Virus record (IMG/VR): IMGVR_UViG_3300045988_125828
Coordinates: 1-64,000 of that record
Origin: a virus
Direction: 5' to 3' (one strand)
Length of the DNA: 64,000 bases
In this document: positions 36,649 to 39,339 of the stretch, in pieces
How the letters are laid out: each line of letters starts with the position of its first letter
Numbering within the stretch: the first letter of the stretch is position 1
Position numbers and translations under genes: made by a program
The notes under the pieces: model-generated
The model's input: the letters and a program-made list of their open reading frames with translations, nothing else
The model's database searches: none
Told to the model about the DNA's origin: nothing

Positions 36649-39339
36649 ATGGAATACGACGGAATTGTACATACAAAAAATGGAGAAGGCGTATTTACTT
36701 ATGCGCACATAGAAAAGCTGCGTGAATATGGAAATCCGCTTAATATAATCGCCCAAAAAGGATGTCAAGAAAAGTTCCTTGCGTCTCCGGCAGATATTAC
36801 TATATTTGGAGGAAACCGTGGTGGCGGAAAAGCGCTGATATTCAATGAATTAGTGTGTACTCCGTTCGGATTTAGAAAAATCCAAGACATTAAAGCGGGC
36901 GACATAATCACTGGTCTTGACGGAGGAATGCAAAGGGTTGTTTACAATTCCTATCAGGGATTTAAAGAGTGCGTAAGGCTTAAATTCGTTGACGGCTCTT
37001 ATGCTGACTGCTGCATAGATCACTTATGGAATATCAAGCAATCTAACCATTGTTCAAAGAAAAGGGCTTTATATAACCTCCCCTTAGAGGATGAATGGCG
37101 AGTGTGGACTACTCAAATGATTATAGACCACATGAAAAAGCAGAAGGGGAAGAAGCAGTCGCGTCATTTATCTGTTCCGTTGTGCAAGCCCGTTCGATTT
37201 ACCAAAGGAAAATATTTCAAGCCTAAATTCAGCCCGTATCTGATTGGTGCACTCATTGGGGACGGATGTATTGCCGATAGTGTAATCAGTAAGAACTGTT
37301 GTTATTTATTTAATCCTGACGAGGAAGTCATTGGCGAGTTCAAGAAATCAGTAGGGTATTCTTCTTGCGAGTTTGAGAAAGGCTGCTACCGCATGCGCAT
37401 CAACGACAAAGAGCTTATCGCAGAGATTCAGAAATTGAATATAACAGGGCGTGCGGCAGATAAACACGTCCCTGACATGTATTTATATGGGACGCTGGAG
37501 GAAAGATGGGCGCTTGTTCAGGGCTTAATGGATACCGACGGAACTATTGATGAAAGAGGGCACCTGTCTTATACTACAATAAGCAAACAGCTTGCGGAAG
37601 ATGTAAAATTCCTTATCAACAGTTTGGGAGGATTGGCGACAATTGGCAGAGGCACCGCGGGGTATAGAAATAGCAATGGAGAATTTATACAATGTAATGA
37701 CGCATACACTCTTTATATAAGAATCCCGGATGCCGAAAGGATGTTTCGCGTAAAAAGGAAAAAAGAAAGATGCAAACCTTATAATGGCGGGATAAGCATC
37801 AATGCGAGAAGAATCATAGGCTACGAGATGATAGGGAAGAAGGAGTGTTGCTGTATTGCAGTGACCAATCCGGACAGTTTGTTTCTAACAAGGGATTTTA
37901 TTGTCACTCATAATTCTTGGGCCTTGCTAATGGAGGTCTTGAAAGATATAAATAACCCGAATTTTGCTTCCGTAATCCTGAGAAACGAAAAAGAGGACTT
38001 GAGTAATATAGTAAACAAGTCTTATGAGCTTTTCTCTCAATACGGAAAGTACAACCGCTCTATCTCGGATATGACTTGGAACTTCTATAACGGAGGGTTT
38101 TTAAAGTTTTCCTATTATGCGGATTCTTACGAAGACTTCGTAAAGCGTTTTCAGGGAAAAGAGTTTGCCTTTATCGGTATAGACGAAATCACTCACTCTG
38201 ATTACCTGAAGTTCAAATACCTTATTACCAACAACCGTAATGCCTACGGTATAAGAAACCGTTTTTATGGCACATGTAACCCTGATCCGGATAGCTGGGT
38301 ACGTAAATTCATAGACTGGTGGATTGATGAAAACGGTAACCCTATTCCGGAGCGAGACGGGGTAATACGCTATTGCTTCATGGACGGCGACCGACCGGAA
38401 GATATTTACTGGGGGGATTCCGTAGACGAAGTTTATAACCAATGCAGGCATATCATAGATCCGTTACTTACGCCTGGTCTTATCAGTAAGGGTTACGACA
38501 AGTCGGCATTCGTGAAGACAGTCACATTCATAAAGGGAAAGCTTGAAGAGAACGTTGCTCTTATATCTTCCGACCCTAATTATTTAGCCAACCTGGCCCA
38601 GCAGGACGAAGAATCTCGCGCAAGGGACTTGGAGGGAAACTGGAACTTTAAAGCTGCCGGGGATGATATTATCAAGATGGAACACATGGAGCGCTTCTTT
38701 AAAAATACCGCCCAATACGGAGACGAGAAGCGCAGGGTATCATGCGATATTGCATACGAGGGAGGAGACAACCTTGTCTTGTGGCTGTGGATCGGAAACC
38801 ATATCGAAGATGTGTATGTGAGTAGGGATAATTCCAAGCGGACGGAAGAGTGTGTTGCCTATAAACTTAGAGAGTGGGGCGTGCTGGAAAAGGATTTTGT
38901 TTTTGACTTAAACGGCCCCGGTCAGGATTTTAAAGGGAAATTCCCCGATGCGGTCAGATTTAATAACATGGCTGCTCCGATACCCGCGACAAAAGCGGAT
39001 GAGAAATCAATCAAGTATGTGTACTCCTCTTTAAAATCACAGTGTGCAGATATTCTTGTAAAAAAGATAAAGAACGAGGAGATATCCATAAATTCCGATT
39101 TGTTATCGCGCAAATTCTCCGGAAACGGATATTCCGGAGTAACCCTTTATAATATTCTTATGAAAGAGAGAAAGGCTATTCGGGACGCGGAAACAGACAA
39201 AGGGTTTGCCTTAATTAAAAAGGAGACTATGAAAAAATACGTAGGGCACTCTCCTGACTTTATAGAAGCGATGATTTACAGACAAATTTTTGATATAAAA
39301 AAACATAACACAAAACCAAAAGGATTATGGAGATTATAA
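36649..39339 (+). CDS. terL: terminase large subunit, interrupted by an intein
   Basis: FGGNRGGGK...(intein)...SWALL, Walker B [17 protein letters not shown]. ATG 36649 is preferred because the track start 36553 lies inside the regulatory motif. Confidence 0.85.
   Translation: [896 protein letters not shown]
36832..37914 (+). mobile_element. intein (361 aa) with LAGLIDADG homing endonuclease domain
   Basis: ALIFNELV...FIVTHN/S. Block B CCIDHLW, block F ECCCIAV. LAGLIDADG motifs [12 protein letters not shown] and [12 protein letters not shown]. Confidence 0.8.

Follow-up and report, generated by a model that had tools for sequence, protein, structure and literature searches.

A probable mobile class 3 intein in the Walker A motif of the large terminase of a LoVEphage-like Bacteroides phage

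Introduction

Class 3 inteins are defined by a non-nucleophilic first residue showing covariation with a tryptophan in block B (B:12), a cysteine in block F (F:4) and a threonine in block G (G:5), together the W-C-T (Trp-Cys-Thr) triplet, usually followed by serine or threonine, and rarely by cysteine, at +1; mechanistically, the block F cysteine is their obligatory nucleophile (PMC2807308, PMC5222942). They have been reported to be monophyletic (Tori et al. 2010), and W-C-T inteins with a non-nucleophilic first residue are known in DnaB, RecG, SNF2 and phage large terminases, mainly in P-loops (PMC2807308), where an insertion between lysine and threonine is the "classic" one (PMC5050341). Here we analyze an insert in the gene of the large terminase (TerL) carried by the virus record IMGVR_UViG_3300045988_125828 of IMG/VR, positions 1 to 64,000 (this whole stretch of 64,000 nucleotides is referred to as the window). 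The insert is, very probably, a mobile and bifunctional class 3 intein that separates Lys from Ser in the Walker A motif of the TerL of a LoVEphage-like temperate Bacteroides phage.

The closest experimentally described system is the intein of mycobacteriophage Bethlehem, in which splicing requires Cys320 (F:4) but not Pro1 (PMC2807308). Kelley et al. (2016) assigned gp11 as the Bethlehem TerL, with the intein at the site TerL1-c, and this TerL intein splices while its endonuclease cuts the intein-less terL (PMC5050341). Hundreds of class 3 LAGLIDADG inteins have been described in actinophage TerL genes (bioRxiv 10.1101/2025.01.02.630785), and the TerL of crAss-like Bacteroidota phages typically has an intein (PMC7886860). 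In the paper describing LoVEphage, inteins go unmentioned.

Results

Boundaries of the insert

Positions 36832-37914 of the window form a stop-free reading frame of 361 codons, running from ALIF... to ...DFIVTHN, inside the open reading frame (ORF) of TerL. A homologue search covering 5.8 billion proteins returned over 100 insert-containing TerL homologues with lengths near 900 residues, and three of about 580 residues in which the insert is absent (P0104, P0106, and P0111). The C-exteins of these three are 82% identical to that of the window and their Walker A motif, GGNRGGGKS, is uninterrupted. Since the intein-less homologues run directly from Lys to Ser, the insert comprises exactly the segment from Ala to Asn between these two residues. 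The first codon of the insert, GCG (36832-36834), encodes Ala, so that residue 1 is neither Cys, Ser nor Thr.

The same boundaries were observed at the DNA level. The contig that encodes P0106 (L007) is intein-less and syntenic with the window over ~14 kb at ~77% nucleotide identity, with the alignment ending at window position 36834 and restarting at 37912, i.e. a clean 1083-bp indel. Its intein-less allele lies at 6200-6450, where the junction reads ...GGCGGAGGAAAA followed directly by TCGTGGGCATTG..., and 70 of 90 bases match the window junction after removal of the intein. The insert is thus missing from orthologues, and its removal restores a conserved motif of the host protein. An earlier sequence-only reading of this DNA, made by eye and without database searches, had proposed a 361-codon insert at 36832-37914 that splits the TerL Walker A; its coordinates are exact and the motifs it quoted are all in place. 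The K↓S site that it proposed (the arrow marks a splice junction), with GNRGGGKS restored upon excision, agrees with both the L007 indel and the alignment to P0104, P0106, and P0111.

The elements of the gene are the following.

36553..39339, plus strand: TerL precursor ORF, 928 residues including the intein, with Pfam Terminase_6N at residues 455-698 (E = 1.4e-11)
36808..36831, plus strand: end of the N-extein and first part of Walker A, GGNRGGGK, with Lys as residue -1 (GGNRGGGKS in intein-less homologues)
36832..37914, plus strand: intein of 361 residues, Ala1 to Asn361, a predicted Hint splicing domain into which a LAGLIDADG homing endonuclease is nested
37915..39339, plus strand: C-extein with the Walker A Ser, Walker B, GTCNP and the C-terminal remainder of TerL
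38164-38193, plus strand: Walker B of TerL, located in the translation
38269-38283, plus strand: GTCNP motif of TerL, located in the translation

The ORF was delimited mechanically, and its start at 36553 adds ~32 residues (36553-36648, MKNRIFALYITHRAV...) that are absent or divergent in several homologues. The true start of TerL is likely the ATG at 36649 (MEYDGIV...), because the N-termini of the homologues point there. The precursor comprises 928 residues, or ~896 from the later start, and the mature TerL would comprise ~535-567 residues with an intact P-loop. The C-terminal remainder of the protein is presumed to be the nuclease domain.

Evidence for an intein with a nested homing endonuclease

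In a single-sequence phmmer search against the PDB, the top matches of the insert were inteins: gp41-1_WCT (6RIZ), the class 3 DnaB1 inteins 6RIX, 6BS8 and 6RIY, PI-PkoII, and PI-PfuI. A family profile built from 43 members matched 6RIZ with E = 6.7e-14, gp41-1 with 9e-11, the class 3 MchDnaB1 and MsmDnaB1 inteins with 1.4e-9 to 4.5e-9, and the endonuclease part of PI-SceI with 4e-7. The AlphaFold2 model of the intein, calculated with the family alignment, had a mean confidence (pLDDT, predicted local distance difference test) of 94.7 and a predicted template modelling score (pTM) of 0.92. When this model was compared with the PDB using Foldseek, it matched the TliVMA intein (E = 5.3e-17) and PI-SceI (4e-16), as well as PI-PfuI and I-DmoI, and its N-terminal Hint lobe could be superimposed on class 3 mini-inteins with a root-mean-square deviation of 1.1 Å over 69 residues at 29% identity. 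Taken together, the profile matches and the predicted structure unambiguously support the insert as an intein with a Hint fold and a nested two-motif LAGLIDADG endonuclease, which is what the sequence-only reading had suggested.

The splicing blocks and the endonuclease features were placed as follows.

36832..36870, plus strand: block A, residue 1 being the non-nucleophilic Ala, with T10, P11 and G13 invariant in homologues
36991..37035, plus strand: block B, including CCIDHLW, with His64 (B:10) at 37021-37023 and Trp66 (B:12) at 37027-37029
37144..37791, plus strand: homing endonuclease region, ~residues 105-320, from Pfam LAGLIDADG_3, the PI-SceI profile match, and Foldseek
37237-37272, plus strand: LAGLIDADG motif 1, LIGDG, with Asp144
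37513-37548, plus strand: LAGLIDADG motif 2, DTDG, with Asp236
37843..37884, plus strand: block F, including ECCCIAV, with Cys341 (F:4) at 37852-37854 as the proposed initiating nucleophile
37894..37917, plus strand: block G, DFIVTHN↓S, with Thr359 (G:5), His360 and Asn361, followed by Ser+1 at 37915-37917

Pfam LAGLIDADG_3 matched residues 320-373 of the ORF with E = 3.6e-10. The catalytic aspartate is kept in both motifs, Asp144 in 117 and Asp236 in all of 118 homologues, and together with the Foldseek matches to I-DmoI and PI-SceI these data indicate a two-motif LAGLIDADG endonuclease. A search of all six-frame segments of the window with the family hidden Markov model (HMM) found the TerL copy and no second intein.

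Class 3 signature

In HMMER alignments to class 3 inteins of known structure, His64 and Trp66 fall on His65 and Trp67, Cys341 on the block F Cys, and the terminal THN on THN. The assignment of W, C and T to B:12, F:4 and G:5, which had been made by eye, agrees with these alignments and with that to the Bethlehem intein. Conservation was then evaluated in two sets, 118 intein-bearing close homologues and the 150 best representatives at 50% clustering (the wide family).

His64 (B:10): 118/118 close, 150/150 wide
Trp66 (B:12): 117/118 close, 148/150 wide
Cys341 (F:4): 118/118 close, 149/150 wide
Thr359 (G:5): 118/118 close, 146/148 wide
His360: 118/118 close, 146 in the wide set of 150
Asn361: 118/118 close, 148 in the wide set of 150
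Residue +1: Ser 109 and Thr 9 close, Ser 81 and Thr 64 wide
Residue 1: P, A, G, C, L or M close; A 64, G 30, M 8, L 8, P 6, V 5, S 4 and others wide

All of the sequence features that define the class are thus present in the window intein (a non-nucleophile as residue 1, Trp B:12, Cys F:4, Thr G:5, and Ser+1), and the signature holds throughout both sets of relatives. The class 3 reading proposed from the sequence is supported on each point that sequence can test. Residue 1 is free to vary while the internal Cys F:4 is invariant, which supports a class 3 mechanism because this is the pattern that the mechanism predicts. Kinship to proven class 3 inteins points in the same direction, with a full-length alignment to the Bethlehem intein and the profile matches to the Msm and Mch DnaB1 inteins.

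On this basis, TerL would be made as a precursor of 928 (or ~896) residues that is inactive, its P-loop being split. Ala1 would preclude the usual N-S acyl shift. Instead, Cys341, aided by His64 and packed by Trp66, would attack the Lys(-1)-Ala1 bond, giving a thioester branched intermediate, and a transesterification would then move the N-extein to Ser+1. Cyclization of Asn361, aided by His360 and Thr359, would free the intein, and an O-N shift would rebuild GGNRGGGKS and yield the active packaging ATPase.

Comparison with known inteins

We compared the intein with the 50-kb Bethlehem genome (AY500153.1, L010) using tblastn and obtained one full-length match (E = 6e-24) at 7680-8702. This match lies inside gp11 (7260-9971), which AY500153.1 annotates as "hypothetical protein", and its translation shows the landmarks of the class 3 prototype known as "MP-Be DnaB": Gln-1/Pro1, His65, Trp67, Lys319-Cys320-Ile321, Asp324, His328, Phe330, Thr339-His340-Asn341, and Thr+1. 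The annotated DnaB-like protein of Bethlehem, gp62 (273 residues), gave no tblastn match to the window intein. Because "MP-Be DnaB" maps to gp11, the intein that serves as prototype of class 3 is itself a terminase intein, and judged by this alignment the window intein is its homologue.

Both inteins interrupt the large-terminase gene of a phage. Each starts with a non-nucleophile, has His at B:10, Trp at B:12 and Cys at F:4, ends in Thr-His-Asn before a hydroxyl residue at +1, and holds a nested two-motif LAGLIDADG endonuclease. They align over their full length with the signature residues in register, Cys341 of the window intein falling on Cys320 and Trp66 on Trp67. They are similar in size (341 residues in Bethlehem, 361 in the window) but just 24% identical. 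The Bethlehem intein has Pro1 after Gln(-1) and occupies the non-P-loop site TerL1-c of a terminase_1-type TerL, whereas that of the window has Ala1 after the Walker A Lys of a Terminase_6N-type TerL in a Bacteroides phage.

The DnaB-1 mini-inteins of M. smegmatis and M. chimaera (6BS8, 6RIX, and 6RIY) resemble the window intein in the W-C-T triplet, Ala1, and a P-loop site, which for MchDnaB1 is SVGK↓A. Unlike the window intein, they lack an endonuclease and reside in a bacterial replicative helicase rather than a phage terminase. Inteins of the PI-SceI/VMA type (1VDE, 1EF0, and 7QSU) were the best structural matches of the whole model, with query-normalized template modelling (TM) scores of 0.56-0.69. 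They have the same domain layout, and their LAGLIDADG motifs resemble LIGDG and DTDG, but their sequence identity to the window intein is 12-16%; as class 1 inteins, they begin with Cys1 and lack the W-C-T triplet.

The inteins of the TerL of Parabacteroides phages PF672P1 and PF672P2, the phiEL and PhiPA3 helicases, Salmonella phage SPLA3, and Proteus phage 10 are 31-39% identical to the window intein over 361 residues and share its junctions and architecture (..G[KR]GK↓A or L ... HLW ... C-I-x-V ... VTHN↓S or T), although they are found in different host proteins and in phages of different host phyla. That of PF672P2 also has Ala1 and occupies the same Walker A site of TerL. In PF672P2 (L002, OP172820.1 24864-27704), a 946-residue "hypothetical protein" is a TerL with an Ala1, W-C-T, LAGLIDADG intein at the Walker A K↓T. 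No intein was annotated in the GenBank records examined, where the products are named "hypothetical protein", "helicase", or "DarB-like antirestriction". Across the intein, many further GenBank phage matches bear the label helicase, RNA polymerase beta, or "DarB-like antirestriction".

Abundance of the family

A tblastn search with the 361 residues against 50,697 GenBank phage records matched 849 of them, 811 at a coverage of at least 80%. By host or label, these included Mycobacterium (299), Salmonella (183), Vibrio (68), Stx2a-converting phages (49), Klebsiella (41), Escherichia (29), and Pseudomonas (24); jumbo Pseudomonas phages and Parabacteroides phages are among them. Five matches were inspected (PF672P2 TerL, the Proteus phage 10 helicase, the phiEL helicase, the SPLA3 "terminase", and the PhiPA3 SNF2 helicase), and all have the layout GK↓A or L ... 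HLW ... C-I-x-V or I ... VTHN↓S or T. When 1.84 billion metagenomic cluster representatives (50% identity) were scanned exhaustively with HMMER, 15,833 matched at E <= 1e-3 and 2,509 at E <= 1e-30. The window intein is therefore a real but ordinary member of a very large phage intein family. The suggestion that an example from a Bacteroidota phage would be unusual does not hold, as the family is abundant across many host phyla and occurs in cultured Parabacteroides phages.

Mobility and insertion registers

If the endonuclease (Asp144, Asp236) is active, it would cut the intein-less terL during co-infection, and recombinational repair would copy the intein in. The identities of inteins and exteins are discordant among the relatives. 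The closest exteins (82%) have no intein, and the next closest, those of P0006 (77%), carry an intein that is 49% identical and located at a different site. The inteins most similar to that of the window (80-83%, P0002-P0005) are found in exteins that are ~60% identical (59.7% for P0003). Because of this discordance, the polymorphic presence of the intein and the intact endonuclease motifs, the sequences fit ongoing homing among LoVE-like phages.

The inteins of LoVE-like TerL proteins (P0006-P0120) occupy two P-loop registers that are two residues apart. At the first, GG[GS]K↓X...THN↓S or T (30/117), residue 1 is variable. The second, GGxRGG↓P...THN↓SKS, accounts for 87/117, with Pro1 in 86 and the remaining one N-terminally truncated. 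A third register, SGG[RK]G↓P...THN↓SGKS, was found in the distant representatives P0193, P0194, P0206, and P0230. An analogous offset of one residue separates TerL1-a from TerL1-b (Kelley et al., PMC5050341). It is conceivable, though not likely, that the freedom of class 3 inteins at residue 1 let this intein lineage shift from one P-loop register to another (Pro1 at G↓SKS; Ala, Gly, Cys, and others at K↓S).

Genome context and host

The C-extein is 59% identical in amino acid sequence to the intein-less TerL proteins of Bacteroides phage LoVEphage, B. intestinalis phage BI-TP1, and Phocaeicola phage PV4-TP1. A megablast search of the terL gene against GenBank phages gave no match, and the kinship with LoVEphage is seen only at the protein level. 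A scan of genome contigs found one locus, in an uncultured Bacteroides metagenome-assembled genome, with an intein-bearing copy that is 57% identical; it supports the host assignment and adds nothing about the intein.

Among the genes of the window are those for a portal, a head-morphogenesis protein, a major head protein, a tape-measure protein, a D5-like primase/helicase, and an integrase. Since the window has an integrase, its source is probably a temperate tailed phage or a prophage. The integrase gene is at 49167-50300 on the minus strand. The D5_N/primase-helicase P-loop protein (42675-44282, minus strand) showed no intein of the TerL family when searched with the family HMM. ARAGORN detected no tRNA genes in the window (1-64000); in LoVEphage, in contrast, a cluster of eight tRNA genes lies directly upstream of terL.

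Discussion

Points that weigh against a mobile class 3 intein

Several observations speak against the conclusion that this is a mobile class 3 intein, or limit it. Profile searches had been suggested for the insert; the LAGLIDADG profile matched, as described above, and the Hint profile did not: Pfam Hint_2 scored E = 0.3 against the complete insert and 0.069 against the mini-intein from which the endonuclease had been deleted, both under the gathering score. As the family profile and Foldseek match inteins, we judged this shortfall to be a limit of sensitivity and not a refutation, and gave it no weight in either direction. NCBIfam gave merely weak partial matches to intein-containing "exception" models across the endonuclease region, which are uninformative for the class. 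The splicing chemistry and the order of nucleophilic attacks are deduced from homology and conservation, and site-specific cleavage of the intein-less allele by the window endonuclease is a predicted activity. The W-C-T triplet alone is insufficient proof of mechanism, because grafting it onto gp41-1 gave no working class 3 intein (PMC7664689). Moreover, six close homologues combine Cys1 with the triplet, so that some relatives of the window intein may splice by a class 1 route. Finally, the GC content of the intein (0.42) is similar to that of the exteins (0.38-0.42), and the acquisition was therefore not recent.

Alternative explanations

A class 3 intein could still be more than a selfish element. 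The window intein contains 16 cysteines, with three consecutive ones in block F (Cys339-341, 37846-37854) and two in block B, and Cys47 (36970-36972) aligns with Cys48 of Msm DnaBi1, a class 3 intein that H2O2 reversibly inhibits through a disulfide between Cys48 and Cys118 (F:4) (PMC6195587). One could therefore imagine redox-gated conditional splicing, in which the intein acts as a switch on terminase maturation and allows packaging only in a reduced, anaerobic cytoplasm; the position of Cys47, the clustered cysteines of blocks F and B, and a host that is an obligate anaerobe would all suit such a role. However, column 47 is Cys in merely 18/118 close and 12/150 wide relatives, the run of three cysteines is lineage-specific and has no known role, and any intein with a cysteine nucleophile is trivially sensitive to oxidants. 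Cys47 and the cysteine run were rejected as family-wide features, being minority states or states specific to the LoVE-like lineage. We consider redox gating unlikely, and such a role for the cysteines of the window intein is speculative.

The chemistry itself could take a different course, with Ser+1 attacking the Lys-Ala1 bond directly, as in class 2, and Cys341 being only structural. Ala1 is likewise a hallmark of class 2 (KlbA) inteins, and according to Tori and Perler either route is in principle open to a W-C-T intein as long as its Cys F:4 has not been mutated (PMC5222942). Yet class 2 inteins have been reported solely in archaeal KlbA and lack the W-C-T triplet, Cys F:4 is invariant in the close relatives and present in all but one of the wide ones, and every tested W-C-T intein (Bethlehem, Dra Snf2, Msm and Mle DnaB, and Bvi IcmO) needs it, so a class 2-like route seems very improbable.

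We give equally little credence to the view that the segment has decayed into an intein unable to splice, or that it forms an integral domain of TerL that the mature protein tolerates. Some class 3-like inteins are indeed pseudogenes, such as Arthrobacter Arth_1007 (PMC3196547), but that pseudogene has no Cys F:4, which the window intein possesses. All of the catalytic residues of the window intein are intact, and the ORF is open across more than 100 diverged homologues. Either version would leave an essential P-loop divided, and a domain that intein-less homologues at 82% extein identity do without is dispensable.

A standard class 1 intein beginning at the Cys nine residues into the insert (Cys9, CTPFG...) was rejected as having next to no likelihood, as the sequence-only reading had also held, since intein-less alleles stop at Lys and resume at Ser without ALIFNELV, the Cys9 column is not conserved (Val in 92 aligned homologues, Cys in just 19), and both the block A spacing (V8...G13...GD) and the alignments to solved inteins put residue 1 at Ala.

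Significance

For annotation, the 928-residue "terminase" is a precursor, of which a mobile element makes up 41 kDa. Cultured Parabacteroides phages carry this element too, likewise unannotated, as do hundreds of metagenomic relatives of LoVEphage. Because it is unannotated yet widespread, the intein should be masked in TerL-based phylogenies and protein clustering of gut phages. LoVEphage is itself a highly prevalent phage of the human gut. As a mesophilic class 3 intein with Ser+1, from a phage of an anaerobe, the element is also a possible part for protein engineering.

To intein biology as such the window intein adds little, given that the work defining class 3 had already described such inteins both in phage terminases and in P-loops, and that the prototype is a TerL intein. 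The class 3 family at GK↓S or T is nevertheless much larger and taxonomically broader than the actinobacterial focus of the literature suggests, and its members with Ala1, Pro1, Gly1, or Cys1 at two neighbouring P-loop sites form a naturally occurring set of variants.

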